The notes under the pieces are model-generated. The model saw only the letters and a list, made by a program, of their open reading frames with translations. It was not told where the DNA came from and ran no database searches. A stretch of 64,000 bases of DNA, taken from assembly GCA_947626105.1 (NCBI GenBank), contig CANQQY010000002.1, forward strand, positions 101,083 through 165,082. The letters are read 5' to 3'. This document shows, piece by piece, positions 965 through 63,170 of this stretch. Source of the stretch: an uncultured Clostridia bacterium (GTDB lineage Bacteria; Bacillota; Clostridia; Christensenellales; Borkfalkiaceae). The translations under genes were made by a program, and so were the position numbers. Position 1 is the first letter of the stretch. Each line of letters starts with the position of its first letter.

Positions 965-965
965 A

Positions 966-27720: not shown

Positions 27721-27763
27721 AAAAACTCCCGCTCCTGTGCAAAACAGGAGCGGGAGATTTTTT
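27720..27763. terminator. Bidirectional terminator downstream of GH43
   Basis: A-run, CTCCCGCTCCTGT-GCAAA-ACAGGAGCGGGAG, T-run. Confidence 0.75.
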
Positions 27764-33944: not shown

Positions 33945-34040
33945 CACTTGCTTCCCCTCTTAGGGGAAGTACCCGCACTCTCCTCACTTGCTTCCCCTCT
34001 CAGGGGAAGTACCCGCGCAGCGGGGGAAAGGGTTTCCAAG
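33945..34040. repeat. Intergenic repeat cluster R4 (family A modules)
   Basis: Two copies of CACTTGCTTCCCCTCTTAGGGGAAGTACCCGC, then GCGCAGCGGGGGAAAGGGTTTCC. Confidence 0.8.
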
Positions 34041-34955: not shown

Positions 34956-35057
34956 GCATTTTCACGGCTTGTCCCTACCCTCGGCTCCCCCTCGTCCCCG
35001 CCTTTCAGAACCATTGCCCACCCTCCTACTCCCCTTCCTTGGGAGGGGGCATGCCCC

Positions 35058-35148
35058 CGCGTCATTCTGAGGCGTAGCCGAAGAATCCCGAGGATGAAAG
35101 TTCGGACTCCGTTCTTCGGGATCCTTCACATTCGTTCAGGATGACGCG
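35058..35148. repeat. Family B TIR-bounded hairpin unit, copy B1
   Basis: CGCGTCATTCTGAGG...TTCAGGATGACGCG termini, with an internal GAAGAATCCCGAGGA / CTTCGGGATCCTTC complement. Confidence 0.75.
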
Positions 35149-35410
35149 GAAAACGGTGGCAGGTCTTGCCCTCGCTGCCCCTCTTAGGGGAAGTCCCCGA
35201 ACGTAGTGAGGGGAAAGGGGTTTCGGAAACCCCTCTGTCACTCGCAAGCTCGTGACATCTCCCCTACATGGGGCGACAAGACAACCCCCACCTGACGCGC
35301 TTCGCGCGCCACCCGCCCCCTTCAAAGGGGGCAGGTTTCGGACTCCGTTCTTCGGGATCCTTCACATTCGTTCAGGATGACGCGATATAACGGGCAAAGA
35401 GCCACCCTTT

Positions 35411-35610
35411 ATTCCAAAATCACTTGCCTTAGGCGGAATTCACTTCCGCCGTGGGCGCCCCCATTTGGCACCCTACGGGAGCCTTAATGTCCTGTGAAAC
35501 AGAACAGGGACGGCCGAATCGCTTCTACAAGGCAAAAGCATTAATCCCTCGTTCGATTTCTTTTTGAGCATGCGCCCAAAGGCACAGACGAAAAAAGAAA
35601 TCGAACGAAA
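35411..35610 (+). repeat. Family D multi-hairpin element, copy D3
   Basis: ATTCCAAAATCAC, then AGGCGGAATTCACTTCCGCC, ATTTGGCACCCTACGGGAGCC, CCTGTGAAACAG, GGCCGAATCG, TACAAGGCA, and ...AAGAAATCGAACGAAA. Confidence 0.8.
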
Positions 35611-35620
35611 TAAAAAACGC

Positions 35621-35649
35621 TTGCTTTTTCCGCGAAAATAGCGTATACT
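35621..35649 (+). promoter_or_regulatory. Promoter of the SRP RNA gene
   Basis: TTGCTT, 17 nt, TATACT. It starts 10 nt after the end of D3. Confidence 0.55.
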
Positions 35650-35655
35650 GTGTAT

Positions 35656-35905
35656 GCTGTGATAGGTGGGGAGTTAGCGGTGCCCTGAATCTGCAATCCG
35701 CTATAGCAGAGCCGAACGCTTTTCTCGGTGCCGTCTATGGGAGGCTGCGCGGGGTAAGCAGTGATGATCGCAAGGTCTTATGCAACGCGCGTCCGCGAAC
35801 CGTGTCAGGGTAGGGATACAGCAGCACTAAACGGTGCCGCGCGTGTGCCATGAGGTAGCTTTGCGGGAGCCGGCTGCCACGTTACCGCTCCGGTAGGTTG
35901 CAACA
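35656..35905 (+). ncRNA. ffs: Signal recognition particle RNA, long (Bacillus-type, with Alu domain)
   Basis: GUGUCAGGGUAGGGAUACAGCAGC and GCGUGUGCCAUGAGGUAGCU match the domain IV strands of E. coli 4.5S (GUCAGGUCCGGAAGGAAGCAGC; GCGUGUGCCGGGAUGUAGCU). The 5' GGUGGGGAGUUAGCGGUGCC is Alu-domain-like. The ends are approximate. Confidence 0.75.
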
Positions 35906-35937
35906 AAAAAAGCCCTCACAGTTTTTTTGAAAAGATT

Positions 35938-38024: not shown

Positions 38025-38207
38025 CTTGGCGCCCTGTTCTACGCGTCATTCCAAATCACGTCATCTTGAGCCTGTCGAAAGATCACCGCATTATAATAAG
38101 GTGATGCTTCGACTATGCTCAGCATGACGTATTTTTATGACACCCCTTCCGTCACGGCAAGGACAGCCGTGCCACCCACCCCTCGAGGGGTGGGCAAGGA
38201 TGAGCTC
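38025..38207. repeat. Intergenic mosaic repeat cluster R6
   Basis: Junction motif CATTCCAAATCAC, family C copy, and a family F-like GCCACCCACCCCTCGAGGGGTGGGCAAGG. Confidence 0.8.
38058..38130. repeat. Family C TIR-bounded hairpin unit, copy C2
   Basis: ACGTCATCTTGAGC...GCTCAGCATGACGT, with an internal GATCACCGCATTATAATAAGGTGATGC hairpin. Confidence 0.8.
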
Positions 38208-40412: not shown

Positions 40413-40657
40413 TGTTTCTCTTTCTCCTTACTCCTTGATTTCTTTGCCCCGTGATCCCGTGACCACGGGAGCGATTTTCTTGTTTGATGCTTTGTTGGCG
40501 CCCCGGAATCCCCTTAGCGCCCCCTTGAGGGGTCCTTCCTTAGGGATGGCGGGAAAAGGCGACCATTCTATTTTTGGAGCTTTTTCCGCCTGAGCTGTCG
40601 CGCGCCCTTGCGCGACTGATGGGGTGTCGTTCCGGTTACCTGAGGGTGTTCCCGATC

Positions 40658-40732
40658 ACGTCATGGTGAGCCTGGTCGAACCATCACTTTATTTATAATG
40701 CGGTGATGCTTCGACTACGCTCAGCATGACGT
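40658..40732. repeat. Family C TIR-bounded hairpin unit, copy C3
   Basis: ACGTCATGGTGAGC...GCTCAGCATGACGT, with an internal CCATCAC..GGTGATG hairpin. Confidence 0.8.
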
Positions 40733-40801
40733 ATTTTGGAACCATTGCCCACCCCCCTACCCCCCTCCTTGGGAGGGGGCATGTTCAGAGAGTCTGCCCT
40801 T

Positions 40802-40996
40802 CGTTCCCAATCACGGTGCGAGGCGGGTCTCCCGCCGCTGCACGCCCCCATTTGGTACCCTACGGGAACCTTAATGTTGTGTGAAACAGAAACGGGACGG
40901 CCGAATCGTACTACAAGGCAAAAGTCTTAACCCCTCGCTCGTATTTGTTTTGCGCTCGCGCCGACAAGGCGCGAGCTCAAAAGAAATCGAGCGAAA
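40802..40996 (+). repeat. Family D multi-hairpin element, copy D4
   Basis: CGTTCCCAATCAC, then GGTGCGAGGCGGGTCTCCCGCCGCTGCAC, ATTTGGTACCCTACGGGAACC, GTGTGAAACAG, GGCCGAATCG, and CTCGCTCGTATTTGTTTTGCGCTCGCGCC..GGCGCGAGCTCAAAAGAAATCGAGCGAAA. Confidence 0.8.
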
Positions 40997-41000
40997 TGCG

Positions 41001-41030
41001 AAAAAAAAGGCGGCAAAAAACCCGCCCTTT
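41001..41030 (-). terminator. Terminator after rpsO
   Basis: Minus strand reads AAAGGGCGG-GTTTTTTG-CCGCC-TTTTTTTT. Confidence 0.6.
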
Positions 41031-41037
41031 CTGTTCG

Positions 41038-41292
41038 TTATTTACGAAGTCCGAGCTGTTCGACAATGGCTCTGTAACGCTCGATATCCTTCGCTTTGAG
41101 GTAGTCCAAGAGCCCGCGGCGCTTACCGACCATCTTCAAGAGCCCGCGGCGGGAGTGATTGTCCTGCTTGTGGATCTTGAGGTGCTCGTTGAGGTGGTTG
41201 ATGCGTTCGGTGAGGAGCGCGATCTGAACTTCGGGCGAACCCGTATCCCCCTCGTGCTGGGCATACTTTGCGATGATTTCTTGCTTTTCCAT
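41038..41292 (-). CDS. rpsO: 30S ribosomal protein S15
   Basis: [51 protein letters not shown]. Confidence 0.95.
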
Positions 41293-41373
41293 TTGCGTTT
41301 ATCCTCCTATGGAATGTGTTGCGTTACGCCAAGAATAGCGTGGAGAGCGCAATTCCTCGCGTACGTCAAACAT

Positions 41374-41402
41374 AGGATATCATATTTCGGAGAATAAGTC
41401 AA
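41374..41402 (-). promoter_or_regulatory. Promoter of rpsO (leader of about 75 nt follows)
   Basis: Minus strand reads TTGACT, 17 nt, TGa-TATCCT. Confidence 0.5.
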
Positions 41403-41447
41403 AGGATTTTAGGGGCAATTCGGAAAATTTACCATTCACTCCCTCGG

Positions 41448-41665
41448 CGCCCCCTTGAGAGGCGGCGCGACCGCCCTTGGCTCGACTGAGGGGTTTTCCG
41501 CGTCATCCTGAGCCAGTGAGTTGTACGTAGTCTGAAACGCAATACCGCGAAGGATCCCGAAGAACGGAGTCCGAACCTTCATCGTCGGGATTCTTCCCCT
41601 TCGACTACGCTCAGGGTCAGAATGACGCGTTGTCCCTCGGCTCCCCTCGAAGGGGAGGAGCGGCT
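41448..41665. repeat. Intergenic mosaic repeat cluster R8
   Basis: CCCTCGGCGCCCCCTTGAGAGG, GCGCGACCGCCCTTGGCTCGACTGAGGGG, a full family B unit and CCCTCGGCTCCCCTCGAAGGGGAGG. Confidence 0.8.
41499..41629. repeat. Family B TIR-bounded hairpin unit, copy B4 (long form)
   Basis: CGCGTCATCCTGAGC...GCTCAGGGTCAGAATGACGCG. The interior contains GAAGGATCCCGAAGAACGGAGTCCGAAC, the reverse of the B1 core. Confidence 0.75.
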
Positions 41666-41670
41666 GTATT

Positions 41671-43101
41671 TCAGCCCTCGGGATAGGGCAAAGCGTTCTC
41701 GGGCGGGACGACCTTCGTCTTGCCGTAGTCATAATAACAATGATAGACGTCTTTCGAAATGTTATCACTCCTCCAATGGACATACGCGACGCGTCCCTCT
41801 GTAAATTTGAGCTCTACATATTTCAAGTTCGTTCCCATCCCGTCGCCGGCTGTAAATCTGAACTTTAAGCCGTCCGATCCCTCGGGCGCTTCATAAAGAT
41901 ATGCGCCGAGCTCCTCGTTATAGGTAAACTCTTTGTAATAATCGGAAAAATCCGTCGCAATCAGAGTAGCATAGAAGAAGGAATACTCCCCGTCCAACAT
42001 CATATATTCCTCCCACTCCGCCAATTTTTCCGGCGTAAACCCGTATTGCATATAATAGATCTGCTTGTCAAAGGTTTGATACTGCGTGCAGACGCCGTTC
42101 TCAATCATCTGGCCTCCAACAGAATCGTACTCCCCGTCCGGCGTCGGAATGGTGACCACAGACAACATTTTGAAACGCCCTTCCAAAGTCATACGTGTCT
42201 CCTCCCAGTCGAGATACATTTTTGCGCGTTGGTCGTCCGCGCCTCCGATGTCGCCGCGCGTCTCTCTCAAAGTCACGTTCTTGAAATTCTCTTCGGAATA
42301 GATCGCTCTCCACTCCTCTTCCGTCACCCGATCGGAAACGAGCGCCTCAAAATCGGTATCCTCCGTGAGCGTGATGTGCTGATGCTCTCCGCCGTCAAAC
42401 GTCACGCTCGCCTTGCCGAAATCATAGACGATGCAATCCACGGCAGACGTCCCGAGTTCGGGACGTCCTTCCTCATTCAACACGTCTGCCCAAATACCGC
42501 AGAGTACGCCGTCCTTAATGATAACGCCCGTCGTCCCTTCGGAAAGAAACACCGCTTCCGTCGTCGTATAGCACTTCTTGGCCGCGTCATATACGAAAGA
42601 GGAATACTTCTCTTTCAGCGCGAGAATATAAGCGCGGTACGAATAGGGGATCTCTCCGCTTTCGGGGGTATAGTCGTCCCCGTCAAAGACCAACTCGCCC
42701 TCGATCTCATTCCATGCCGAAACCTCCCCATCCGTCTCCGACATCAACATGTGTTGCCCGAGCATTTTTTCGCCGTCCTCCAAAATACGATACATCGAGA
42801 AATCCGCTTTTTTCCCGTCGAACGCGCCCTCAACGTACGCGTCCTCGTAGGGAGTATCGTATGTATATGTTAAGAGGAAATTGTCGAACTTTTCCGCCGC
42901 AAATACCGCCTTCCATTCCTCCCCCGTCACCTCGTCGGACGTGAGCGAACGAAGATCGGTCTCCTTCGTCATCGTAAATCCCGCGCTGTCCGCAGGATCG
43001 TGCCCGCCGTTCTCTTCACCTTGATTGTCGCCGCACGCCCCGCACAGCCCGAGCGCAAACATCGCGGCAAGCGAGACTGCCAAAATTCCAAACTTTTTCA
43101 T
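41671..43101 (-). CDS. Lipoprotein of unknown function with an internal duplication
   Basis: Signal peptide and lipobox LGLCGAC. Two similar halves (TKETDLRSLTSDEVTGEEWKAVF... and TEDTDFEALVSDRVTEEEWRAIY...). Confidence 0.6.
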   Translation of the reverse strand: MKKFGILAVSLAAMFALGLCGACGDNQGEENGGHDPADSAGFTMTKETDLRSLTSDEVTGEEWKAVFAAEKFDNFLLTYTYDTPYEDAYVEGAFDGKKADFSMYRILEDGEKMLGQHMLMSETDGEVSAWNEIEGELVFDGDDYTPESGEIPYSYRAYILALKEKYSSFVYDAAKKCYTTTEAVFLSEGTTGVIIKDGVLCGIWADVLNEEGRPELGTSAVDCIVYDFGKASVTFDGGEHQHITLTEDTDFEALVSDRVTEEEWRAIYSEENFKNVTLRETRGDIGGADDQRAKMYLDWEETRMTLEGRFKMLSVVTIPTPDGEYDSVGGQMIENGVCTQYQTFDKQIYYMQYGFTPEKLAEWEEYMMLDGEYSFFYATLIATDFSDYYKEFTYNEELGAYLYEAPEGSDGLKFRFTAGDGMGTNLKYVELKFTEGRVAYVHWRSDNISKDVYHCYYDYGKTKVVPPENALPYPEG

Positions 43102-43144
43102 CTCTTGTCTCCTTATAAAATTTTTTAGAACTGTTTATAATTAT

Positions 43145-43163
43145 AGTCCTAATTTTTAGGACT
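43145..43163. promoter_or_regulatory. Perfect 8-3-8 palindrome, candidate XRE operator
   Basis: AGTCCTAA-TTT-TTAGGACT between the divergent lipoprotein and XRE genes. A further half-site GTCCTAAA at 43176-43183 and TTAGAACTG at 43126-43134. Confidence 0.45.
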
Positions 43164-43204
43164 GTCAAGCAATCCGTCCTAAATTTTGATACTTAATTTT
43201 TGCA

Positions 43205-43444
43205 ATGAAAAATAAATTTGCCATGCGGCTTAGCGAACTTATTGCCGAAAGCGGAAAAACGCAGAACGCTATCTGCTCGGATCTGCATATCGCGAAACAA
43301 AAACTTTCTAATTGGAAAACGGGTTACACGGAACCCTGTATGGATGATCTCATGATGCTTGCCCTCTATTTCGAAGTGACGAGCGACTACCTCTTGGGGT
43401 TGGAGGACGAGACGGGCGCAAAGCACGATTTTGAGGAAAAATAG
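43205..43444 (+). CDS. XRE-family helix-turn-helix regulator (79 aa)
   Basis: RLSELIAESGKTQNAICSDLHIAKQKLSNWKTG HTH_3 core. No Shine-Dalgarno site upstream. Confidence 0.7.
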   Translation: MKNKFAMRLSELIAESGKTQNAICSDLHIAKQKLSNWKTGYTEPCMDDLMMLALYFEVTSDYLLGLEDETGAKHDFEEK

Positions 43445-43445
43445 C

Positions 43446-43498
43446 AAAAAACAAGCCGCGGGGCGTGCAGATGTTGCACGCCCCGCGGCTTGTTTTTT
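43446..43498. terminator. Long bidirectional terminator
   Basis: AAAAAACAAGCCGCGGGGCGTGCA-GATG-TTGCACGCCCCGCGGCTTGTTTTTT. Confidence 0.8.
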
Positions 43499-43499
43499 G

Positions 43500-44912
43500 T
43501 TACCCGCCGAACAGTTCGTTCTTTTCTTCGATGAGTTTTTCCACCTTTTGAAGGTAGGTCGGGATGTCCTTGGGGGACCCGCAACGCTCGATACGCTCCT
43601 CCTTCAAAAAGAGCTTTTTGGTGATCGCGTTCGCGCCGACGGCGAGATTGTCGCAAATTTCCTCCATCACGTCCACGTTGTAGACGCACGCCTTGCCCGG
43701 TTTCGTCCAGCCGACGTTCTCATGCGCGCCCGCCATGTATTTTTGGCGGTACAGATAGTAGGGTTCATATCCCGCCGCCGTGAGTTTTTCACGGGAATAG
43801 GCGATCATGTCGGACAAGAGCCCGTCGGGAAGAACGTCGAGCGCGGGCTTCCCGCTTCCCTCTGCCGCTTGCCCGAGCCGCTCCTCTTTGAGCTTCGCCC
43901 CCTTTTTGAGGCAGAGCGTATGGACGGTGATATTTTCGGGGGAGAGGGAAATGGCGGTATCGACGCTGTTTTTGAATTCTTCGAAACTCTCTCCCGTGAG
44001 TCCCGCGATGAGGTCGCAGTTCACGTCGAATCCGTAGGGCGACGCCGTTTCAAAGGCGGAGAGGACGTCCTGCGCCGTGTGCTTCCTGCCGATCGCGGCG
44101 AGCGTCCTGTCCGAAAAGCTCTGCGCGTTGATACAGATACGGGTCACGCCGTATTTCTTACATATGTCGAGTTTTTCCGCCGTAAAAGTATCGGGCCGCC
44201 CCGCTTCCACCGTAAATTCACAGCCGTTTTCGCGCAGAGGAGAGATCGCCTTCAAGACCCTTTCCAGCTCCTCCGCCTCGATTGCGAACGGCGTCCCCCC
44301 GCCCACATAGACCGAGCGAAGATTTTTGATGAGCGGCTTTGCGGCGGAGAGCTCCCTTTCGAGCGCGTCGAGATAGGCGGGCATGTATTGCCGCGTGCGC
44401 GCGATCGGCGCGGTGATGAAAGAGCAATACACGCATTTTGTCGGGCAGAACGGGAGTGAGACGAAGAGATCGACGTTGCCCTCTTCCCGAACGTAGATCC
44501 CCTTCTGTCCTTCGATCACTCTGCCGACGAGCGCAGTATTTTCCTCGGAGACGAGGAGTTTTTGAAAGAGCGGCACAAACTCCCCCGTCTTTTCCATCTG
44601 CTGATAGGCAAGCCGCGTGGGACGGATGCCTGTAAGCGACCCCCACGGCAGACTCTTGCCGTAGTATCCCGAGAGAAGTTTGTAGAGGGAGAGCTTCGCA
44701 TAACGTTTGATGAGGCTCTTCTGTTCCAAAGGCGTACGGGAGACGTCCTCGTCGGAATAGAAAAAGTCCCGTCCGCCGAAGCGGAAGGTATTCCGGAACG
44801 CCGCGCCGCAGCAGTCGGAGCTATGCCCGATCTCGAGCGATTCCGCGCCCTCGAACAGGCGCACGACGTCCATGAGTTCGGGCTCTAACCATTTTAGCGT
44901 TGATACGATCAT
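43500..44912 (-). CDS. hemZ: HemZ-type radical SAM coproporphyrinogen dehydrogenase-like protein
   Basis: CPTKCVYCSF radical SAM cluster motif and a HemN-like core after an N-terminal extension (LMDVVRLFEG). The start is ambiguous (44912 or 44957). Confidence 0.6.
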   Translation of the reverse strand: MIVSTLKWLEPELMDVVRLFEGAESLEIGHSSDCCGAAFRNTFRFGGRDFFYSDEDVSRTPLEQKSLIKRYAKLSLYKLLSGYYGKSLPWGSLTGIRPTRLAYQQMEKTGEFVPLFQKLLVSEENTALVGRVIEGQKGIYVREEGNVDLFVSLPFCPTKCVYCSFITAPIARTRQYMPAYLDALERELSAAKPLIKNLRSVYVGGGTPFAIEAEELERVLKAISPLRENGCEFTVEAGRPDTFTAEKLDICKKYGVTRICINAQSFSDRTLAAIGRKHTAQDVLSAFETASPYGFDVNCDLIAGLTGESFEEFKNSVDTAISLSPENITVHTLCLKKGAKLKEERLGQAAEGSGKPALDVLPDGLLSDMIAYSREKLTAAGYEPYYLYRQKYMAGAHENVGWTKPGKACVYNVDVMEEICDNLAVGANAITKKLFLKEERIERCGSPKDIPTYLQKVEKLIEEKNELFGG

Positions 44913-45033
44913 ATTTGATACCGTTTTCGGCGTCTCCGCCGCTTTTCCCCCACCCATGTCCGCGAACCTATGCGGATTTTAGAAGTGAAGCAACCCCAAG
45001 GATCCGACCGCCCTCTCGCTACCCATTTTATGA

Positions 45034-45366
45034 GAAGTACCCGACCACCCCCTTGCTTCCCCTCTTAGGGGAAGTACCCGCGCAGCGGGGGATAGGGTTT
45101 CCGGAAACCCCTCTGTCACTCACTACGTTCGTGACATCTCCCCTAAAAGGGGCGACAAGGCGAGCCCTTCGTTCTAAATTACGGCGCGTGGTAGGGTCTC
45201 CCTGCCTAAGCGCACTCAATTTGCCGAACCCCTTCGGCTTAATGTCCTGTGAAACAGAACGTCGGCGGCCGAATCGTTTTTACAAGGCAGAAGTCTTAAC
45301 CCCTCGCTCGTATTTCTTTTGCGCTTGCGCCGACAAGGCGCAAGCGCAAAAGAAATCGAGCGAAAC
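45034..45366. repeat. Intergenic mosaic repeat cluster R9
   Basis: Family A module (CTTCCCCTCTTAGGGGAAGTACCCGCGCAGCGGGGGATAGGGTTTCCGGAAACCCCTCTGTCACTCACTACGTTCGTGACATCTCCCCTAAAAGGGGCGAC) followed by D5. Confidence 0.85.
45171..45365 (+). repeat. Family D multi-hairpin element, copy D5
   Basis: GTTCTAAATTAC, then GGCGCGTGGTAGGGTCTCCCTGCCTAAGCGCA, CAATTTGCCGAACCCCTTCGGC, CCTGTGAAACAG, GGCCGAATCG, and CTCGCTCGTATTTCTTTTGCGCTTGCGCC..GGCGCAAGCGCAAAAGAAATCGAGCGAAA. It abuts the relA stop. Confidence 0.85.
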
Positions 45367-45368
45367 CG

Positions 45369-47495
45369 TCAGTTGCTCATTCTTCTTACGCTGATGATCT
45401 TATCTCTCGATGAAAGGCGGGAGATGATGACCTCGATGTCCTGCTTGCTCAAAAGCGACACCGTGACCTCGACGAGCGCGTCGCCGTTCTTGTCGTACCG
45501 TCCGTTGATCGACGTCAACGAAAGTTTCATGTCCGAAAGTACGGAAGAGATCGCCGCAAGCGCCGCGCCCTGCTCTTCCGCCGTAACGAGGAGTCCCGCT
45601 TTGAAGCGCGCCTCCCCCTCCTGTTTCGTCCACTCGGCGGGTTGGAGTCTGTCCTCTTCCGCATTTTTGAGGTTGGGGCAGTCCCTTCTGTGGATCACGA
45701 TGCCCCTGCCGCGGCTGACGAACCCGACGATGTCGTCGCCGGGAACGGGCGAACAGCACCCCGCGAAGGAGACGAGGAGCCCCCCCATGCCCTTGATCGT
45801 GACGGCGCCCTTGGCATTCTTCTCACGGAAGGGTTGCAAAACGGGCGTGGGCACTTCCTTGCGGAAGTAGTCGACGAGCCTGAAAAAGACCTGGTTGACG
45901 GAGACCGCGCCGTATCCGACGGCGGAAAACATCTCGTCCTGCGTATCGAAGGAGAATTTTTCGGAGACTTTCTTGAAGCTCTCGGGGGTGAGGAGTTCGG
46001 AGAGCTGGTATCCCTTGCGCTTTGCCGCGTCCTCGAGCATGCTCTTGCCGAGCTTGATATTGTCCTCCCGCATCGCCTTCTTGAAGAACGCCTTGATCTT
46101 CGCCTTGGCAGAGGGAGATTTTACGAATTTGAGCCAGTCGCGCGAGGGTCCCTTGCTCGTGGGCGAGGTGATGATCTCGACGACGTCGCCGAGTTCCAGC
46201 ACGGAGTCGAGCGGGACGATCTTCCCGTTGACCTTCGCGCCCGTACAGCGGTTGCCGACTTCGGAGTGGATGGCGTATGCAAAGTCCACGGGCGTGGCGT
46301 TTTCGGGAAGGGAGATGACCTTGCTCTGCGGGGTGAACACGAGGAGTTCGCTCGAATAGAGCTCCTCTTTGACGCTGTTCATGAACTCCTTGGAGTCGCG
46401 GAATCCCCCCTGCAATTCCATCATTTCACGGATCCACGACATCCTTTGATCCAAAGTCGTCTCCGTGTCGCGCTGTTCCTTATATTTCCAGTGCGCGGCG
46501 ATACCGTACTCCGCCGTGCGGTGCATCTCCTCCGTCCTGATCTGGATCTCGAAGGGCTGCCCGAAGTTTGTGACGACGGTGGTATGCAGCGATTGGTACA
46601 TGTTGGGCTTGGGGGTCGCGATATAGTCTTTGATGCGCCCCGGCACGGGCTTCCACTTCTTGTGGATCTTGCCGAGCACTTCGTAGCACTCGTCCACCGT
46701 CGCGACGATGACGCGCACCGCGGTGAGATCGTAGATCTGGTCGAGCGTCTTGTGCTTCGTCGTCATCTTCTTATAGATGGAGTAAAAGTGCTTGGGACGC
46801 CCGAACACCTCGCCCGGGATATTCGATTCGGACAGGATCCCGTTGATCTCCTCGACGACGAAATCGACGAACCGGTTGCGCTCTTCGAGTTTTTGATGAA
46901 TGTTCTCCACGAGGAATTCGAACGCCTCGGGGTCGAGATATTTGAGGCAAAGATCTTCGAGCTCGCATTTGATCTGGCTGATACCGAGCCTGCCCGCGAT
47001 GGGCGCATAGATATCGAGGGTCTCCTTCGCCATCTTGTGCTGCCGTTCCTCGGAGAGGAAGTTGAGGGAGCGCATGTTGTGGAGACGGTCGGCAAGTTTG
47101 ATGATGATGACGCGGATATCCTTCGCCATCGCGATGAAGATCTTGCGGAAATTCTCCGCCTCCTCCTCTTCCTGCGACTTGAAAACGATCTTATCGAGTT
47201 TTGTCACGCCCGAAACGAGGGTCAAGACCTCTTCGCCGAACTCACGCCTGATATCCTCCTCGGTGGCGGGGGTATCCTCGATGACGTCGTGAAGAAGGGC
47301 GGCGGCGACGGTCGCCCCGTCCAGCCCGAGATCCACCAAGATCTCCGCAACGGCGCAGGGATGGATAAAGTAGGGCTCCCCCGACGCACGCTTTTGGTTC
47401 TTGTGGGCGCGGGAAGCAAAGTCGAATGCGCGGAGCAGCATATCCCTGTCCTCGCCGACATAGTACTCATAGATCTTCATCAGAATGGGTTCCAT
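45369..47495 (-). CDS. relA: Bifunctional (p)ppGpp synthetase/hydrolase (RSH)
   Basis: HD domain (HPCAVAEIL..HDVIEDT), synthetase domain, TGS and ACT. Start ATG 47495 lies 1 nt after the recJ stop, with GGGAGGA upstream. Confidence 0.9.
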   Translation of the reverse strand: MEPILMKIYEYYVGEDRDMLLRAFDFASRAHKNQKRASGEPYFIHPCAVAEILVDLGLDGATVAAALLHDVIEDTPATEEDIRREFGEEVLTLVSGVTKLDKIVFKSQEEEEAENFRKIFIAMAKDIRVIIIKLADRLHNMRSLNFLSEERQHKMAKETLDIYAPIAGRLGISQIKCELEDLCLKYLDPEAFEFLVENIHQKLEERNRFVDFVVEEINGILSESNIPGEVFGRPKHFYSIYKKMTTKHKTLDQIYDLTAVRVIVATVDECYEVLGKIHKKWKPVPGRIKDYIATPKPNMYQSLHTTVVTNFGQPFEIQIRTEEMHRTAEYGIAAHWKYKEQRDTETTLDQRMSWIREMMELQGGFRDSKEFMNSVKEELYSSELLVFTPQSKVISLPENATPVDFAYAIHSEVGNRCTGAKVNGKIVPLDSVLELGDVVEIITSPTSKGPSRDWLKFVKSPSAKAKIKAFFKKAMREDNIKLGKSMLEDAAKRKGYQLSELLTPESFKKVSEKFSFDTQDEMFSAVGYGAVSVNQVFFRLVDYFRKEVPTPVLQPFREKNAKGAVTIKGMGGLLVSFAGCCSPVPGDDIVGFVSRGRGIVIHRRDCPNLKNAEEDRLQPAEWTKQEGEARFKAGLLVTAEEQGAALAAISSVLSDMKLSLTSINGRYDKNGDALVEVTVSLLSKQDIEVIISRLSSRDKIISVRRMSN

Positions 47496-52450: not shown

Positions 52451-52482
52451 GCCGAAATACGCGCATTTTCATATTTTTTCGT

Positions 52483-53778
52483 CTAAATTTCTTTTGATTT
52501 GCGTGCAGCGAGCACCCGCATGGCGCACTCGACGCGTTTTTTCATCATCGCGCAGGTGATCTCGTACGGTTTTTCGATGTCGCCGTTGAAGTGATAGTTG
52601 TTCGCGCTGCATCCGCCCGAGCAGATGAACTTCGCAAAACAGTCCTTGCACTTCTCCCGCGTGAACAGACAGCTGTTTGCGAATTTCCCCCTGATCGCGG
52701 GATCGAGCGTCCCTTCGAAGACGTTGCCCATCTTCCATTTGGGATCCCCCGCAAACTGGTGGCAGGGATAGATGTCGCCGCTGGGCACGACGGAGAAATA
52801 TTCGTTCCCCGCGCCGCAGGCGGAGACCCGCTTTTCGAGGCAGGGTCCCCCTTCGAGATCCACATTGAAGTGGAAGAAGTTGAAGCCCTTCCCCTCCTTT
52901 TCGCGCTCGATATAGGCGTCGCAGAGGGCGTCGTACTCCTGTTCGATGACGGGAAGATGCTCCTCTTTGATCTCCAAATCGGGGATCTCCGTGACGACGG
53001 GCTCCACCGAAAGGGAATCGAAGCCCTGATCGGCGAGGAAGAGCACGTCTTTCGAAAAATCGAGATTCTTCGCCGTAAATGTGCCCCGCACATAATAGTG
53101 CTTGTCCCCTCTCGCACGCACGAACTTTTTGATCTTTTCGATCACGGCGTCGAAGCTCCCCTTGCCGTTCACCGTCTTGCGCACTTCGTCGTGCACCTCT
53201 TTTCTGCCGTCGAGGGAAAGGACGACGTTCTCCATCTCCTCGTTGAGGAATCGAATGGTCTCGTCGTCGAGAAGAAGGCCGTTCGTCGTCGTCGTGAAGA
53301 GGAAGCGCTTGCCGCGCTTTGCCGCTTCTTCCTTGGCATAATAGACGGTGCGTTTGACGACGTCGAAGTTCATGAGCGGTTCGCCGCCGAAGAAGTCCAC
53401 TTCGAGCACTTTTCTCTTCCCGCTCTTTTCGAGGAGGAAGTCGATCGCCGCCTTCGCCGTTTCAAAGGACATCATCTCGCGCGCGGCATGGTAGGCGCCC
53501 TCGTCCGCAAAGCAATATTTGCAGCGAAGGTTACAATCGTGACAGATGTGAAGGCAGAGCGCCTTGATCTCCTCCCGCTTGATGGGACGGGCGTCCGTTT
53601 CGGGGGCGTCCAAGAGTCCCTCCGCTTTCAGAGCGGCGATCTCGGCGAGCTCTTCGTCCGTGAGACAAACGGGCTCCCCCCCGAGATACTTCGCCGTGCG
53701 CTCGTCTGCGACGTGCAGACTGCCGCTGCCCGTGTCGTAAACGTAATAATCGTCGTGGTATTGAAAAACGTGTATCAT
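52483..53778 (-). CDS. scfB: Radical SAM/SPASM thioether-forming SCIFF peptide maturase
   Basis: CHDCNLRCKYCF radical SAM motif, C-terminal SPASM cysteines (CGAGNEY..; CKDCFAKFICSGGC), and position directly downstream of a SCIFF precursor. Confidence 0.85.
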   Translation of the reverse strand: MIHVFQYHDDYYVYDTGSGSLHVADERTAKYLGGEPVCLTDEELAEIAALKAEGLLDAPETDARPIKREEIKALCLHICHDCNLRCKYCFADEGAYHAAREMMSFETAKAAIDFLLEKSGKRKVLEVDFFGGEPLMNFDVVKRTVYYAKEEAAKRGKRFLFTTTTNGLLLDDETIRFLNEEMENVVLSLDGRKEVHDEVRKTVNGKGSFDAVIEKIKKFVRARGDKHYYVRGTFTAKNLDFSKDVLFLADQGFDSLSVEPVVTEIPDLEIKEEHLPVIEQEYDALCDAYIEREKEGKGFNFFHFNVDLEGGPCLEKRVSACGAGNEYFSVVPSGDIYPCHQFAGDPKWKMGNVFEGTLDPAIRGKFANSCLFTREKCKDCFAKFICSGGCSANNYHFNGDIEKPYEITCAMMKKRVECAMRVLAARKSKEI

Positions 53779-55194: not shown

Positions 55195-56349
<1,155 letters not shown>

Positions 56350-56845
56350 TTATTTCGCTAATTTCTTTGCTCGTCCGCGCGTAAGGCCTACCCCTTGGGG
56401 TGGAGGCTCCCTAGGAGGAACCATGCCCCCTCCTGAGGAGGGGGAGAGGGGGGTGGGCAAGACCTGCCCCTGTTTACGGGGGCGGGTGGCGCGCAAAGCG
56501 CGTCAGGTGGGGGTTTCTTGCTTCCCCTCTTAGGGAAAATTTTGCACTTCTGCCAAAGATTGATAATCTTTGGCGCAAAATTTTCTTGGCATTTGCCCAT
56601 TTGTTCGGGCAAATGCTGACCGAACGCGGGTCTCTACCCGCGTGAGACAGTACCCGCGCAGCGGGGGATAGGGTTTCAAAACCCCTCTGTCACTCACTGC
56701 GTTCGTGACATCTCCCCTAAGAGGGGCGACTAGATCCTCTGTCACTCACTGCGTTCGTGACAGCTCCCCTACAAGGGGCGACAAGATCCTCTGTTGCTCA
56801 CTACGTTCGCGACAGCTCCCCTACAAGGGGCGCCGAGGGGGGCTC
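56350..56845. repeat. Intergenic mosaic repeat cluster R10
   Basis: Degenerate D end, family F and G units, family E unit, then three 52-nt tandem family A units reaching to within about 12 nt of the queA stop. Confidence 0.85.
56517..56674 (+). repeat. Family E unit, left arm of an inverted pair flanking queA
   Basis: Its reverse complement matches 58643-58800 at 157 of 158 positions (hand alignment). Internal hairpins: GCCAAAGATTGATAATCTTTGGC, GCATTTGCCC..GGGCAAATGC and CGCGGGTCTCTACCCGCG. Confidence 0.9.
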
Positions 56846-56856
56846 CATGTCGCCGC

Positions 56857-57876
56857 TTAAAGGAACAGGCACGCGTCGCCGAACGAGAAGAAACGGTATC
56901 TCTCTTTTACGGCGATCTCGTAGACGGACAAAATTTCCTCGCGGGAGCAGAGGCAGCTCACGAGCATTAAAAGCGTGCTCTCGGGAAGGTGGAAATTGGT
57001 GATGAGCGCATCCACGCACTTCATCTTATAGGGCGGATAGATAAAGATGGAAGTATCGCCGCTGCCCGCCTGTACGGTGCCGTCGTCGCGGGCGACCGTC
57101 TCGAGCGTGCGCACCGAGGTCGTTCCCACGCAAATGACCCGTCTCCCCTCCCGCTTTGCCGCGTTGATCGTCTCCGCCGCCTCCGCGCTCACCTCATAGT
57201 ATTCGCTGTGCATGACGTGCTTTTCGACGTCGTCCACTTTGACGGGGCGGAAGGTGCCGAGCCCCACATGGAGAAGCACTTCGACGATCTCGACCCCCAT
57301 CGCGCGGATCTTATCGAGAAGTTCGGGCGTGAAATGGAGCCCTGCGGTGGGAGCCGCCGCCGAACCGTTTTCACGGGAATAGACCGTCTGATAACGTTCG
57401 GGATCCTTTAATTTTTCATGGATATAGGGCGGAAGAGGCATGGCGCCGACACGGGAGAGGATCTCCTCAAACGCGCCTTCGTAAAAAAACCGTACATGCC
57501 GCTCGCCCGATTCGGTGACGGAGAGCACTTCGAGCGAAAGTTCCCCGTTTACAGTCAATTTCGTTCCCGGGCGGCACTTCTTCCCGGGGCGGACGAGGAC
57601 TTCCCATGTGTCGAGCTCCAAACGTTTTAAGAGCAGGATCTCGACTTTTCCGCCGTTTTCCGTCTTGGCGAAGAGGCGGGCGGGAAGCACGCGCGTGCGG
57701 TTGACGACGAGCACGTCCCCTTTTTTGAGGTAATCGGTGACATCGCGGAAAATGCGGTGGTCGATGCGTTTTGTGTCCCGATGATAGACGAGAAGCCTCG
57801 CGCTGTCCCGCGGGTTTGCGGGCGTCTGGGCGATGAGTTCTTCGGGCAGTTCATAATAAAAATCGGAGGTTTTCAT
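56857..57876 (-). CDS. queA: S-adenosylmethionine:tRNA ribosyltransferase-isomerase
   Basis: [20 protein letters not shown]-terminus; 339 aa. Confidence 0.9.
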
Positions 57877-57886
57877 AGGAGAAGTT

Positions 57887-58063
57887 GTTTCGCTCGATTT
57901 CTTTGCTGCGCAAAGAAATACGAGCGAGGGGTTAAGTTTTTTGCGTTGTAATTACAATTCGGCCGCCCCTTTTCTGTTTCACAGGACAGTAAGCCGAAGG
58001 GGTTCGGCAAATTGAGTCGCCCACGGCGGAAGTGAATTCCGCCTAAGGCTAGTAATTTCAAAC
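57887..58063 (-). repeat. Family D multi-hairpin element, copy D6
   Basis: GTTTCGCTCGATTTCTTTGCTGCGCAAAGAAATACGAGCGAGGGGTTAAG ... GCCGAAGGGGTTCGGCAAATTGAG ... GGCGGAAGTGAATTCCGCC ... AGTAATTTCAAAC. Confidence 0.85.
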
Positions 58064-58065
58064 TT

Positions 58066-58294
58066 GTTTCGCTCGATTTCTTTGCTGCGCAAAGAAATAC
58101 GAGCGAGGGGTTAGTTCTTTTGCCTTGTAAAAGCAATTCGGCCACCCCTTTTCTGTTTCACACGACATGAAGCCGAAGGGGTTCGGCAAATTGAGTCGCC
58201 CTACTTCGCCCTGCGGGCTCGTGCCGCGCTTAGTGCAATAGAATGCGCGCGGGGCGGCGGAAGTGAATTCCGCCTAAGGCAAGTTATTTGGAAC
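58066..58294 (-). repeat. Family D multi-hairpin element, copy D7 (with an insertion of about 60 nt)
   Basis: Same ends as D6. Extra segment around 58198-58256 (GCCCTACTTCGCCCTGCGGGCTCGTGCCGCGCTTAGTGCAATAGAATGCGCGCGGGGC). Confidence 0.85.
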
Positions 58295-58296
58295 TT

Positions 58297-58467
58297 GTTT
58301 CGCTCGATTTCTTTGCTGCGCAAAGAAATACGAGCGAGGGGTTAAGTTTTTTGCGTTGTAATTCGGCCGCCCCTTTTCTGTTTCACAGAACATTAAACCG
58401 AAGGGGTTCGGCAAATTGAGTGCGCTGCCGCAAAAGCGTGGTTTTGCTTCGCGCAGTGATTTAGAAC
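58297..58467 (-). repeat. Family D multi-hairpin element, copy D8
   Basis: Same 5' stem as D6/D7. The distal hairpin is of the TGCGCTGCCGCAAAAGCGTGGTTTTGCTTCGCGCA type, as in D1/D2. It ends with GTGATTTAGAAC. Confidence 0.85.
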
Positions 58468-58642
58468 AGAGTCCACCCTTGTCGCCCCTCTTAGGGGAGA
58501 TGTCACGAACGCAGTGAGTGACAGAGGATTCTTGTCGCCCCTCTTAGGGGAGATGTCACGAACGCAGTGAGTGACAGAGGGGTTTCCGAAACCCCTTTCC
58601 CCTCACTTTGTTCGGGGACTTCCCCTAAGAGGGGCAGCGAGG

Positions 58643-58800
58643 ACCCTATCCCCCGCTACGCGGGTACTGTCTCACGCGGGTAGAGACCCGCGTTCGGTCA
58701 GCATTTGCCCGAACAAATGGGCAAATGCCAAGAAAATTTTGCGCCAAAGATTATCAATCTTTGGCAGAAGTGCAAAATTTTCCCTAAGAGGGGAAGCAAG
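58643..58800 (-). repeat. Family E unit, right arm of the inverted pair flanking queA
   Basis: See 56517-56674. Track ORFs 56388..56612(-) and 58705..60000(+) share an identical 32-aa N-terminus because of this repeat. Confidence 0.9.
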
Positions 58801-58845
58801 ATAAGCCTTTGCCCTGCGGGTAAAAGGGGAAGCAAGGCGAGCATC

Positions 58846-59892
58846 CTATTCATCGAACACAGAGAGCTGTTTTTTGACGGATTCGGGCATCTTTATGCCC
58901 ATGTGTTCATAGCCGCCTTTCAGGCAGATCCTGCCGCGGGGCGTGCGGGCGATAAAACCGAGCTGGATAAGGTAAGGCTCGTAGACGTCGAGAATGGTGT
59001 TGACGTCCTCGTTGATCGTCGCGGCGAGCGTATCCAGCCCCGCGGGCCCGCCGTTGAATTTTTCAATCAAGGCGCGAAGCAGATTTCTGTCCGTCTCGTC
59101 GAGCCCGAGCCCGTCGATCTCCATTTTGCGGAGCGCGCTGTCCGCGTCCTCTACCGTGATCGCACTGCTCCCGCGCACGGCGGAAAAGTCGCGCACCCTC
59201 TTCAAAAGCCTGTTCGCGATACGGGGAGTCCCGCGGCTGCGGCGGGCGATCTCGTAGCTTCCGCCTTCCTCGACGGAGATCCCGAGCGTCTTTGCCGAAC
59301 GCGCAACGATCTTTTGGAGCTCCGAAGGGGTATACATGTCGAGGCGGCACATGATGCCGAACCTGTCGCGCAGGGGGCTCGAAAGCATGCCCGCCCGCGT
59401 CGTCGCCCCGATCAGGGTGAACCGTTTGAGGGGGAGGCGGATATTCCGCGCCATGGGTCCCTTCCCCACGATGATATCGAGGGCGTAATCCTCCATGGCG
59501 GAATAGAGCGTTTCCTCCACCGTGCGGTTGAGGCGGTGGATCTCATCGATAAAGAGGACGTCGCCCTCGTTCAGATTGGAGAGAATGGCGGCGAGATCCC
59601 CCTGCCGCTCAATGGCGGGTCCCGAAGTCAGTTTGATCTGCGCGCCCATGGTGTTTGCAATGATGTGCGCGAGCGTCGTCTTTCCGAGCCCCGGGGGGCC
59701 GTACAGGAGAACGTGGTCGAGCGCCTCGCCGCGCTGCTTTGCCGCCGCCATGTAGACTTTGAGGTTCTCCTTGACCTTATCCTGCCCGACGTAATCTTCG
59801 AGCGTCCGCGGGCGGAGAAGGTTTTCCTCCATGTCGTATTCATTTTTTTCGCCGGAGAGGAACCGCTCCCCGCCGAATTCTTCATCAAACAT
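58846..59892 (-). CDS. ruvB: Holliday junction branch migration helicase RuvB
   Basis: [14 protein letters not shown] Walker [11 protein letters not shown] Walker B; 348 aa. Confidence 0.95.
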
Positions 59893-62691: not shown

Positions 62692-63170
62692 GGCAGATAA
62701 GGCTCCTCCCAAGGAGGAGCTGTCACCGCAAGGTGACTGAGGCGGGCATCTCGGCGCCCCTTCCAGGGGAGCTGTCTCGAACGTAGTGAGTGACTGAGGG
62801 GTTTCGAAACCCCTTTCCCCCTCGCAAGCTCGGGGGACTTCCCCTAAAAGGGGCAGCAAGGAATAAGGTGACGTAATCAGAACCATTGCCCACCCCCTTA
62901 ATCCCCCTCCTCGGGAGGGAGCATGGCTCCTCCCAAGGAAGAGCTGTCACCGCAGGTGACTGAGGTGGGCACGCTCTAAATCACGGTGCGAGGCGGGTTT
63001 CCCGCCGCTGCACGCCCACATTTGGCACCCTACGGGAGCCTTAATGTCCTGTGAAACAGAACGGGGACGGCCGAATCGCTTCTACAAGGCAAATGCACTA
63101 ACCCCTCGCTCGTATTTATTTTGAAAGTCCGCCCTACTCGGGCGGACTTTCATAAAGAAATCGAGCGAAA
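62692..63170. repeat. Intergenic mosaic repeat cluster R12
   Basis: Family A modules (GAGGGGTTTCGAAACCCCT), a family F unit (GAACCATTGCCCACCCCC...GGGAGGGAGCATGG), and D9. Confidence 0.85.
62973..63170 (+). repeat. Family D multi-hairpin element, copy D9
   Basis: GCTCTAAATCAC, then GGTGCGAGGCGGGTTTCCCGCCGCTGCAC, ATTTGGCACCCTACGGGAGCC, CCTGTGAAACAG, GGCCGAATCG, and CTCGCTCGTATTTATTTTGAAAGTCCGCCC..GGGCGGACTTTCATAAAGAAATCGAGCGAAA. It abuts the queH stop. Confidence 0.85.

Follow-up and report, generated by a model that had tools for sequence, protein, structure and literature searches.

Family D is most likely a lineage-specific and previously undescribed repeat family of a broad BIME/BOX-like kind that is already known. 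From a 64-kb stretch of Clostridia DNA (the window), we read D as a non-coding, non-autonomous, interspersed mosaic repeat akin to BIMEs, BOX elements and the mosaics of Neisseria, with a probability of about 0.6. It is most likely selfish repeat DNA rather than a new RNA gene. Blastn, MAFFT, nhmmer and a covariance model were concordant in finding nine D copies in the window, with nhmmer E-values of 1e-40 to 1e-58. The initial annotation had proposed nine copies, all of which are present with ends within 1-2 nt of where it had placed them. The 18-mer AACCCCTCGCTCGTATTT was observed 7 times against 0.05 expected by chance. D units are 170-230 nt in size, and more than 35 further copies occur in loci of related MAGs. 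The nine copies make up 2.7% of the window (about 6.7% for all repeat families combined). They had been described as intergenic, and each indeed lies between genes supported by Pfam or NCBIfam; open reading frames overlapping D copies (e.g. 57873-58145) are spurious. Mean core identity among the window copies is 75%, indicating that they are old and that there was no recent burst. Six of them are the following:

964-1156, minus strand: D copy carrying version 1 of hairpin 1, version a of hairpin 2 and c2, an alternative central region; with its 3' end it reaches the ychF stop codon (962-964).
27522-27721, plus strand: D copy between convergent genes, versions 1, a and c1; at its 3' end it directly adjoins the T-tract of the GH43 gene's bidirectional terminator.
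35412-35610, plus strand: D copy, versions 3, b and c1, with arms CGTTCG/CGAACG; about 10 nt separate its end from the -35 box of the SRP RNA promoter downstream.
40803-40996, plus strand: D copy, versions 2, b and c1, with orthologues in L019 and L026 at 97-99% identity.
45171-45365, plus strand: D copy, versions 4, a and c1; its 3' end is 3 nt from the relA/spoT stop codon (45369-45371).
62973-63170, plus strand: D copy, versions 2, b and c1; its 3' end is 6 nt from the queH stop codon.

The unit runs from a 12-nt leader (GTTCYAAATYAC) through two small hairpins and a central segment to a long terminal hairpin. The arms of the latter, CTCG-N(2-4)-ATTTCTTT and AAAGAAAT-N'(2-4)-CGAAAY, are complementary and conserved, with one bulged T, and enclose a variable centre of 7 to about 100 nt. 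At least six complementary arm-box versions exist, and the predicted stability of the terminal stem is -30 to -40 kcal/mol. The order of parts and motifs first proposed for D holds in eight copies but fails in 964-1156, whose central region is different and lacks TGTGAAACAG, GGCCGAAT and TACAAGGCA; these central motifs are 85-99% conserved in 32 of the 41 classified copies. Unrelated sequence likewise substitutes for the central region in L020, L027, L028 and L033. Hairpin 1 had been thought to occur in four unrelated versions. There are four, but they are not unrelated, since all have one architecture: a 3-4-bp outer stem, an internal loop of about 3x3, a 5-7-bp inner stem and a 3-6-nt loop. 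Furthermore, versions 2 and 4 have the GGGTCTCCC apex in common, and version 3 resembles version 4 inverted. Hairpin 2 has two to three versions and the central region at least two. Modules reassort freely among D copies, and nearly all combinations of leader, hairpins 1 and 2, central region, and terminal-stem arms and centre were found. In L029 and L033, the 70-100-nt centres between the arms are composed of other repeat modules. A long-range pairing of hairpin 2 with GGGGCGGCCGAAT was rejected: hairpin-2 versions combine with either downstream version (for example, L029 versus the window at one site), so the pairing is not enforced. D has no terminal inverted repeats; its 5' end (GTTCYAAATYAC) and 3' end (..CGAGCGAAAY) have only GTT(T)C in common, and the inverted repeat within D makes the terminal hairpin, not the ends of the element.

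Head-to-tail D tandems have junctions of 0-2 nt. The three tandem copies reported upstream of queA do lie head-to-tail between ruvB (58846-59892, minus strand) and queA (56857-57876, minus strand), on the strand of both genes. Their junctions are 2 nt each (AA), and 11 nt separate the end of the last copy from the queA ATG. The array and its neighbour downstream of queA contain:

57888-58063, minus strand: queA-proximal D copy (covariance model 183 bits); leader 58052-58063, hairpin 1 version 3 at 58019-58049, hairpin 2 version a at 57993-58008, central region 57929-57992, terminal stem 57890-57928 with a short GCGCAGC centre.
58067-58294, minus strand: middle D copy (165.5 bits); leader 58283-58294, hairpin 1 version 3 with its inner part at 58256-58280, hairpin 2 at 58172-58187, central region 58108-58171, terminal stem 58069-58107.
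58198-58255: foreign repeat module nested inside hairpin 1 of the middle D copy.
58298-58467, minus strand: distal D copy (189.5 bits); leader 58456-58467, hairpin 1 version 1 at 58422-58454, hairpin 2 at 58397-58412 with a closing G.T pair, central region 58339-58396, which is 6 nt shorter, terminal stem 58300-58338.
58468-58801, minus strand: other palindromic modules (CTTGYYKCCCCTnnnAGGGG units and GTCAC..GTGAC hairpins), which lie 5' of the D copies and take up what remains of the ruvB-queA spacer.
56336-56368, minus strand: two solo 3'-arm units (AAAGAAATTAGCGAAAT, AAAGAAATTTGCGAAAC), found on the edge of the queA-tgt repeat array that lies nearest the gene.

The middle copy is longer because of the nested module, which is also present in L008, L017, L023 and L033. 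The L031 orthologue of the two solo arms is a full D copy terminating in the same arm. An arm-like match at 52477-52494 is due to chance and spans the conserved SCIFF maturase stop codon.

Every D copy sits in a 300-970-nt array of other palindromic families, of which it is always the 3' edge. These arrays inflated spacers that were once 9-50 nt long. For example, the queH-PLC spacer is 488 nt in the window versus 9 nt in L033 and 49 nt in L032, and the ruvB-queA spacer is 969 nt, whereas L037 has 18 nt there and L032 has 205 nt. Family E, a separate hairpin element of about 95 nt, has a terminal inverted repeat whose outer 12 nt are identical to the D leader, which suggests a shared recognition terminus.

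Identical occupancy in all related genomes, with no sign of mobility, had been regarded as counting against the proposal. Our comparison of genomes about 92-97% identical revealed that occupancy and composition differ between close relatives, and between genomes about 94-97% identical, five of the seven shared sites are changed by module replacement or in copy number. At the queH site, the window has one copy and two MAGs have two tandem copies with other hairpin versions. The queA site carries three copies versus one, and the tgt site a full copy versus solo arms alone. The D copy was replaced at the relA site and at the L007/L028 site, and the PNPase site is the only unchanged one in this comparison. 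At a single site, copy number can vary from 0 to 3 between close relatives. Modules pass between D copies by ectopic gene conversion, as our comparisons show, with tracts of about 100 nt. L004 and L024 are identical in the flanks and the 3' half; hairpin 1 is swapped, and SNPs are clustered over about 110 nt. The orthologous sites compared carried remnants or other modules, with no clean pair of empty and filled alleles among them, and no flank duplication was seen around 34 copies.

Full D copies are confined to three to four closely related rabbit-gut Clostridia MAGs, and a fifth relative has a diverged form. A 19-mer scan of 185,579 species genomes matched only three rabbit-gut Clostridia MAGs, plus one chance match. 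Four further relatives, whose QueA is 83-90% identical, gave no match to the D model over 65 kb of syntenic DNA. There were also no matches to one D pattern in viral contigs, to two D patterns in JGI metagenomes, or by blastn in phage and plasmid collections, and an origin from phages or plasmids was rejected on the empty phage, plasmid and viral-contig searches. A literature search for an already described family like D returned nothing relevant. In Rfam (release 15), SRP RNA alone matched the whole window at the gathering threshold, so that no D copy has a covariance match at or above a gathering score; the initial annotation would have counted such a match against its proposal. Permissive scans (E<=5) of 56300-58900 and 40400-45450 matched no D copy either. 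The same scans gave spurious hairpin/miRNA matches on other repeats.

We propose that new copies are gained at or beside existing 3'-arm hairpins, which would explain both the polarity of the arrays and the tandems. The centre of the 3'-arm hairpin would accept other modules, and solo arms would persist at array edges. The hairpins may be kept intact by the mobilising or recombining machinery, or by templated palindrome repair. Effects on neighbouring genes would then be a by-product, candidates being a barrier at RNA 3' ends and interference with translation termination by a hairpin 0-7 nt past the stop codon. No transposase, recombinase or reverse transcriptase was found among about 40 window genes tested, and precomputed Pfam lists of seven syntenic loci show no mobilising enzyme. 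This result counts against our reading, as do the age of the copies, the lack of a clean pair of empty and filled alleles, and the missing terminal inverted repeats. The tnpA(Y1), tnpB, iscB or RAYT genes that had been suggested as partners found no support, with no HUH, Y1, RAYT, TnpB or IscB among the window genes tested or in the Pfam lists of the seven syntenic loci. The 476-aa open reading frame at 41671-43101 was rejected as a candidate enzyme, being a signal-peptide lipoprotein without a Pfam or NCBIfam match and irrelevant to D. An IS91-type GTTC/CTTG target, an enrichment of Spo0A boxes (TGNCGAA in hairpin 2) and a CRESS-like nonanucleotide in the leader were dropped, as each motif is missing from alternative module versions or from the flanks of solo copies. 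A retron-like layout was dropped for want of flanking inverted repeats and an adjacent reverse transcriptase.

Among the other explanations, a cis-acting RNA element under selection survives best, although we consider it unlikely. Once part of an mRNA, its stable hairpins, the terminal stem above all, would block 3' exonucleases, separate or stabilise cistrons, or modulate translation termination when 0-7 nt past a stop codon, as some E. coli REP sequences are reported to do. In about 17 loci the terminal stem begins 0-7 nt from the stop codon of a convergent gene; where a canonical terminator is present, D begins immediately after the T-tract; and sense-oriented copies end 10-40 nt before the start codons of queA, tgt and other genes. 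However, the closeness of D to gene ends is trivial because the ancestral spacers were only 9-50 nt long. The 3' side faces a convergent gene in about 17 loci and a co-directional one in 10, with no significant bias, so both orientations are found. The persistence of the hairpins despite sequence change, and the 96-99% identity of unchanged orthologous copies, which exceeds the conservation of flanking coding DNA, also speak for such a role. Yet the same genes do without D in the relatives with 83-90% identical QueA, one site can hold none to three copies among close relatives, and one hairpin suffices as a barrier, leaving the five-part unit unneeded. Ortholog conservation, the excess of G.T pairs described below and the arm-box versions could nevertheless reflect a function as RNA or single-stranded DNA rather than drift plus conversion.

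Somewhat less probable is a strand-specific mobilisation system of an undescribed kind, with D as its passenger and the 3'-arm hairpin as attachment site; it would act through a single-stranded DNA nuclease or recombinase or by reverse transcription. Units or modules would integrate into or beside the arm hairpin, and arrays would grow away from the gene-proximal arm. This would be conceptually near attC/attI capture, but without cassettes.

It is improbable that D copies are trans-acting or autonomous structured RNAs (small RNAs, guide-like or ribozyme-like), with a functional single-stranded centre and the hairpins as scaffold. The conserved central motifs fit this idea, and so does the covariation of hairpins 1 and 2. 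The initial annotation had argued that structure is retained while sequence is swapped. The hairpins are indeed kept across divergent versions: pairing is preserved in 93.6% of the cells of the model-fitted alignment, and 19 pairs show double changes, which 0 of 500 shuffles reached. The independent compensatory events are few, however, and the covariation is weaker than it appears because a few sub-family versions, reshuffled among copies through ectopic gene conversion, give rise to the signal; the proposed central helix has almost no compensatory change. G.U-type pairs are favoured on the D strand (G.T in 62 stem cells versus A.C in 4), an excess that may also bear on recognition as single-stranded DNA but reflects few independent events. 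Compared with its complement, the D strand gives the more stable fold for hairpin 1 (13 of 16 distinct sequences) and for the central segment (29 of 38). For the whole element the complement is the more stable in 22 of 34 copies, and strand assignment by whole-element folding energy was dropped because the D strand is not preferred. The dedicated structured-RNA gene that the initial annotation had considered is thus unsupported: promoter and terminator consensus were sought in D and are absent, upstream sequence varies from copy to copy, orientation is mixed, the centre is replaced in five cases, Rfam has no match, hundreds of copies are implied, and D is missing from close relatives.

More doubtful still is a descent of D from an IS200/IS605-type (Y1 HUH) or RAYT-type element, possibly with TnpB/IscB guide-RNA ancestry; D would then be non-autonomous and would move as single-stranded DNA recognised by its subterminal hairpins. 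In favour of this, D has asymmetric ends with a hairpin at each, lacks terminal inverted repeats, has no target duplication seen around it, has T(T/C)AC immediately 5' of hairpin 1, tolerates G.T in its stems in a strand-asymmetric manner and forms head-to-tail tandems. D-sense also tends weakly to lie on the C-rich strand. The window lies within one replichore, with negative GC skew throughout, and has five arrays on the plus and two on the minus strand; at other loci the count is about 17 versus 7, by noisy local skew. However, this bias favours the leading-strand template, the reverse of what the IS608 rule would give. Hairpin 1 has no sequence relationship to the terminal stem, and no constant tetra- or pentanucleotide precedes D, whose 5' flanks fall into at least four classes (CCCTTY, GGGCGA, GGGCAYRC or CGAAAY). 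No Y1, TnpB or IscB domain occurs in the genes tested, and HEARO and other Rfam models give no match.

Finally, it is very unlikely that D copies are intrinsic terminators or carriers of a conserved 26-codon micro-ORF (MSCETERGRPNRFYKANALTPRSYLF): the terminal stem adjoins gene ends and an ATG-started ORF is found in 26 of 39 copies, but the stem has T-runs before it and A-runs after it on both strands, with no terminator-like site on it, and the start codon is missing in 13 of 39, several other copies are truncated or frameshifted, and there is no Shine-Dalgarno sequence. The earlier remark that the terminal stem lacks a consistent U-tract and is not simply a terminator was therefore right; genuine terminators elsewhere in the window are canonical.

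If our reading of D as a mosaic repeat is correct, mosaic hairpin repeats have recently come to fill the intergenic spacers of an uncultured Clostridia lineage from the gut, taking up about 7% of the window, and spacers in housekeeping operons such as ruvB-queA-tgt have grown from tens to hundreds of bases. Such repeats break short-read assemblies. Every metagenome contig with this exact QueA protein is shorter than 2 kb, and the one reaching furthest upstream stops inside the third D copy. They would also give sensitive strain markers and hotspots of ectopic recombination. Large hairpins 0-7 nt past stop codons or just before start codons would constitute a natural experiment on expression, and the modular ends, with the leader common to family E, would offer a handle for finding the mobilising machinery.

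Compared with known systems, D is small, non-coding, multi-copy and intergenic like classical MITEs, but lacks their terminal inverted repeats. The similar end hairpins and constant target of IS200/IS605 (PATE) and TnpB-IscB elements are not seen, nor is the G+C stem with U-tract of intrinsic terminators. Like integron attC sites, D has complementary arms, a bulged T, a centre of 7 to about 100 nt, head-to-tail copies and a suggested strand-specific fold. It differs in having no RYYYAAC/GTTRRRY cores (the arms are CCTCG... and ...CGAAAY, and the leader GTTCYAA puts a pyrimidine where purines are needed), no cassettes and no nearby integrase, an integrase domain being absent from the window genes, and in being dispersed among housekeeping genes. 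The mosaics and Correia elements of Neisseria resemble D in their dense multi-family intergenic arrays, module exchange, recombinant sub-families and units beside gene starts and ends. However, in D we see neither the 26-nt terminal inverted repeats and TA duplication of Correia elements nor the 20-nt dRS3 repeats that border the Neisseria mosaics. With BIME/REP sequences, D shares extragenic clusters and mosaics of several palindromic types in 3' untranslated or intercistronic positions, sometimes less than 15 nt from stop codons, hairpins that fold on either strand and occupancy that varies between strains. D has no GTAG-type (GT(A/G)G) head at any hairpin and no RAYT gene was seen with it; its host is a Gram-positive anaerobe, and its unit is a five-part one of about 200 nt, not a 35-nt palindrome. 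BOX elements of Streptococcus pneumoniae have the form boxA-boxB(n)-boxC. They resemble D in being intergenic and about 100-250 nt long, in exceeding 100 copies per genome, in having no transposase of their own and in often lying in operons. Also alike are a Firmicutes host, a non-coding and modular make-up with variable copies, and a strong predicted structure; the resemblance is architectural only. BOX ends A and C are partly complementary and MITE-like while the ends of D are mutually unlike, and copies of D vary in which version of a module stands at each position, not in how often one module is repeated.

Three head-to-tail minus-strand copies of family D between ruvB and queA, and six further copies, had been proposed in the initial annotation. 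All nine were recovered by blastn with copy 45171-45365 as the query:

964-1156, minus strand: D copy
27522-27719, plus strand: D copy
35411-35610, plus strand: D copy
40802-40996, plus strand: D copy
45171-45365, plus strand: D copy
56857-57876, minus strand: queA, 3' flank of the tandem trio
57887-58467, minus strand: tandem trio of D copies
58198-58255: foreign repeat module (GCGCGCATTCTATTGCACTAAGCGCGGCACGAGC...) nested in hairpin 1 of the trio's middle copy
58846-59892, minus strand: ruvB, 5' flank of the tandem trio
62973-63170, plus strand: D copy

The window copies shared invariant blocks in a MAFFT alignment, with E-values of 1e-40 to 1e-58 from an nhmmer profile and scores of 162-213 bits from a covariance model; one D 18-mer occurred 7 times against 0.05 expected. 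All copies were intergenic, as had been claimed, when genes were annotated with Pfam/NCBIfam and called by codon usage. The trio lies in the sense orientation of the ruvB-queA operon with 2-nt junctions, and the queA ATG lies 11 nt beyond the end of its last unit. The added length of copy 58067-58294 is the nested module, which was found again independently in four other loci (L008, L017, L023 and L033). No Shine-Dalgarno sequence was seen upstream of the ATG of queA or tgt (57877-57890 and about 56322-56340 in the window; 9960-10003 in the related locus L032) in any genome compared, D-bearing or not; a clear AGGAGG precedes other genes of the same genomes, for example the gene after L008 7411.

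Each D unit consists, in order, of a 12-nt leader (GTTCYAAATYAC), hairpins 1 and 2, a central segment and a terminal hairpin. The arms of this last hairpin, CTCG-box-ATTTCTTT and AAAGAAAT-box'-CGAAAY, include one bulged T and flank a centre that ranges in length from 7 to about 100 nt. The common order of parts described earlier held in general and failed in copy 964-1156, whose central region differs. Over 41 classified copies there were four versions of hairpin 1, two of hairpin 2 (a third in L031), at least two of the central segment (further ones in L033) and several of the terminal-stem centre, combined in nearly every way. The hairpin-1 versions are not unrelated, as had been stated, and have one architecture and partial sequence in common. 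The arm box occurred in at least six versions, each self-complementary between the arms (CGCTCG/CGAGCG, GTTCG/CGAAC, GTTGAA/TTCAAC, GCAAA/TTTGC, GTTCA/TGAAC and GAACA/TGTTC).

A comparison of seven orthologous sites in genomes sharing about 94-97% identity showed that close relatives differ in the presence, copy number and modules of D. Only the PNPase site was unchanged (97-99% identity). The queH site had one copy versus two, with hairpins 1 and 2 differing and the core 100% identical; at the queA site there were three copies versus one, and their arms differed; the tgt site had a full copy versus arms alone; and at the relA and L007/L028 sites the copies were replaced. Between L004 and L024 the flanks and the 3' half of D were identical, hairpin 1 was exchanged and SNPs were clustered over about 110 nt, the pattern that ectopic gene conversion leaves. 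Core identity among the window copies averages 75%; compared with these genomes the family is old, and low-level turnover is ongoing.

The window has 56.5% G+C, a GC skew negative throughout, sporulation genes, a large-type SRP RNA and a SCIFF system; its host fits a spore-forming member of the Clostridia. When one genome from each of 185,579 species was scanned for an exact D 19-mer, the only matches were three 'uncultured Clostridia' rabbit-gut MAGs, two of which (bin37 and bin61) have loci 92-98% identical to the window, and one further sequence by chance. Viral contigs gave no match to one gapped D pattern, JGI metagenomes none to this or a second D pattern, and phage and plasmid records none by blastn. 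Metagenome contigs with an exact QueA were all <2 kb, and the one extending furthest upstream (L001) stops inside the third D copy. Syntenic loci were also obtained via QueA homologues of falling identity. D was present in bin61 (L031, 96%), and diverged D-like units stood in tandem upstream of queA in CANPZV (L033, 87%). There was none in 65 kb of combined syntenic DNA from CANREC (L035), CANQHG (L032), CANQUD (L036) and CANQOY (L037), at 83-90%, where about nine would be expected at the window density of one per 7 kb.

The most economical reading, to which we give a probability of about 0.6, is that D is a lineage-specific, non-autonomous mosaic repeat. It is multi-copy, intergenic only, patchy in phylogenetic distribution and polymorphic in copy number and presence; it inflates spacers, its modules are reassorted by gene conversion, and nesting occurs. 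In a self-comparison every copy belonged to an array of 300-970 nt that is otherwise built from other palindromic repeat families, and D was the 3'-most module each time. At about 17 loci, among them ychF, relA and queH in the window, the D 3' end is separated by 0-7 nt from a convergent gene's stop codon; at others it lies immediately past the T-tract of the convergent gene's terminator; and at about 10 loci, queA, tgt and SRP RNA among them, a co-directional start follows 10-40 nt downstream. Such positions might be read as those of an element serving primarily as an RNA barrier, which we regard as rather unlikely. D orientation relative to neighbouring genes had no significant bias, and at sites without D the queH-PLC spacer is 9 nt (L033) or 49 nt (L032) versus 488 nt in the window, and the ruvB-queA spacer 18 nt (L037) versus 969 nt. 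Since these tiny spacers have been filled, nearness to gene ends is largely a by-product; this does not account for the array polarity, with D or its 3' arm alone always at one edge. The large-type SRP RNA (35657-35921) has a near-consensus promoter at 35611-35660 (TTGCTT, 17 nt, TATACT); this promoter begins about 10 nt past the end of a D copy, so all sequence upstream of the -35 box is repeat array.

Solo D 3' arms were found at array edges, as at 56336-56368 upstream of tgt, where the bin61 site has a complete D ending with the same arm; at several loci they also adjoin D copies on the 5' side. The inter-arm space in L029 and L033 holds 70-100 nt of other repeat modules. Solo arms at edges and modules between arms together suggest that the arm hairpin acts as a site of material addition. 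That it is attachment-site-like within a strand-specific system of a novel type is unlikely. An exact AAAGAAAT-N-CGAAA match at 52477-52494 was rejected as a solo arm: the matching sequence runs across the stop codon, itself conserved, of the gene for the SCIFF radical-SAM maturase, is kept in genomes without D and is due to chance.

Other palindromic repeat families also occupy intergenic spacers, and all repeats together make up about 6.7% of the window:

1157-1275, 21820-22128, 27269-27469, 33947-34037, 35005-35400, 40521-40800, 45050-45170, 56414-56837, 58468-58801, 62701-62972: other palindromic repeats
21933-22045, 38048-38150, 40648-40742: family E hairpin element, about 95-110 nt, terminal inverted repeats of about 24 nt (GTTCCAAATCACGTCATSNTGAGC)

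One of the other families is a hairpin element of about 120 nt with ends CTTGYYKCCCCTnnnAGGGGAAG and CTCCCCTnnnAGGGGCGACAAG, and this CTTG...CAAG element occurs also in the D-less relative L032 (9796-9960); GTCAC..GTGAC hairpins and units of GGCTCCTCCnAAGGAGGAGC make up further types. The outer 12 nt of the family E inverted repeat are identical to the D leader, which hints at a common recognition terminus. The Rfam model RF02901 (Aggregatibacter sRNA 41) matched both strands of family E below threshold (35 bits, gathering threshold 97). Window 41412-43507 (2.1 kb) carries a small helix-turn-helix gene and a gene for a 476-aa signal-peptide lipoprotein (41671-43101) without Pfam or NCBIfam match; about 0.8 kb of unrelated sequence replaces it in L026, otherwise 94-97% identical, indicating a strain-variable accessory island. 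In L033 (3908-7723), ruvA and ruvB are separated by the insertion of a gene for a 1271-aa TIR-domain protein, probably a defence gene, which neither the window nor the other relatives have.

The initial annotation had proposed either a structured RNA family or a mobile element recognised as ssDNA hairpins. Its claim that hairpins are retained across differing sequences was supported: with 39 copies in a model-fitted alignment, pairing was seen in 93.6% of cells and double changes in 19 pairs, a level reached by no shuffle or slid control. This signal is confined to hairpins 1 and 2 and mirrors sub-family versions rather than many events, and the proposed central helix is almost invariant and thus uninformative on covariation. 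In the stems of hairpin 1, hairpin 2 and the terminal hairpin, 62 cells were G.T versus 4 A.C, estimated as about 11 versus 4 independent events; because these are few, the hint of strand-specific folding is weak. Whole-element folding energies preferred neither strand, and Rfam gave no match even in a permissive scan. An autonomous structured RNA is distinctly unlikely. An IS200/IS605- or RAYT-type ssDNA element, which hairpins might also suggest, is very improbable: no transposase, recombinase, HUH or reverse-transcriptase domain was found in about 40 genes of the window or among the Pfam domains precomputed for seven syntenic loci, and D departs in at least one defining feature from each of classical MITEs, REPs, IS200/IS605-type elements and attC sites. 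A terminator or micro-ORF is hardly credible, as D contains no promoter or terminator consensus (the terminal stem had rightly been held not to be a simple terminator), nearby real terminators are canonical, and the 26-codon core ORF is missing or broken in a third of copies.

For a mosaic repeat of this kind, arrays would grow at the arm hairpin or beside it, hairpins may be maintained by the process that mobilises or recombines the repeats or through templated palindrome repair, and RNA-level effects would be incidental. The evidence does not force a new mechanism. Family D itself appears undescribed, while its kind is well known; what is unusual is its density, orderly five-part modularity and directional arrays. 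Its closest architectural analogues are the pneumococcal BOX elements, the enterobacterial BIMEs and the mosaic elements of Neisseria.
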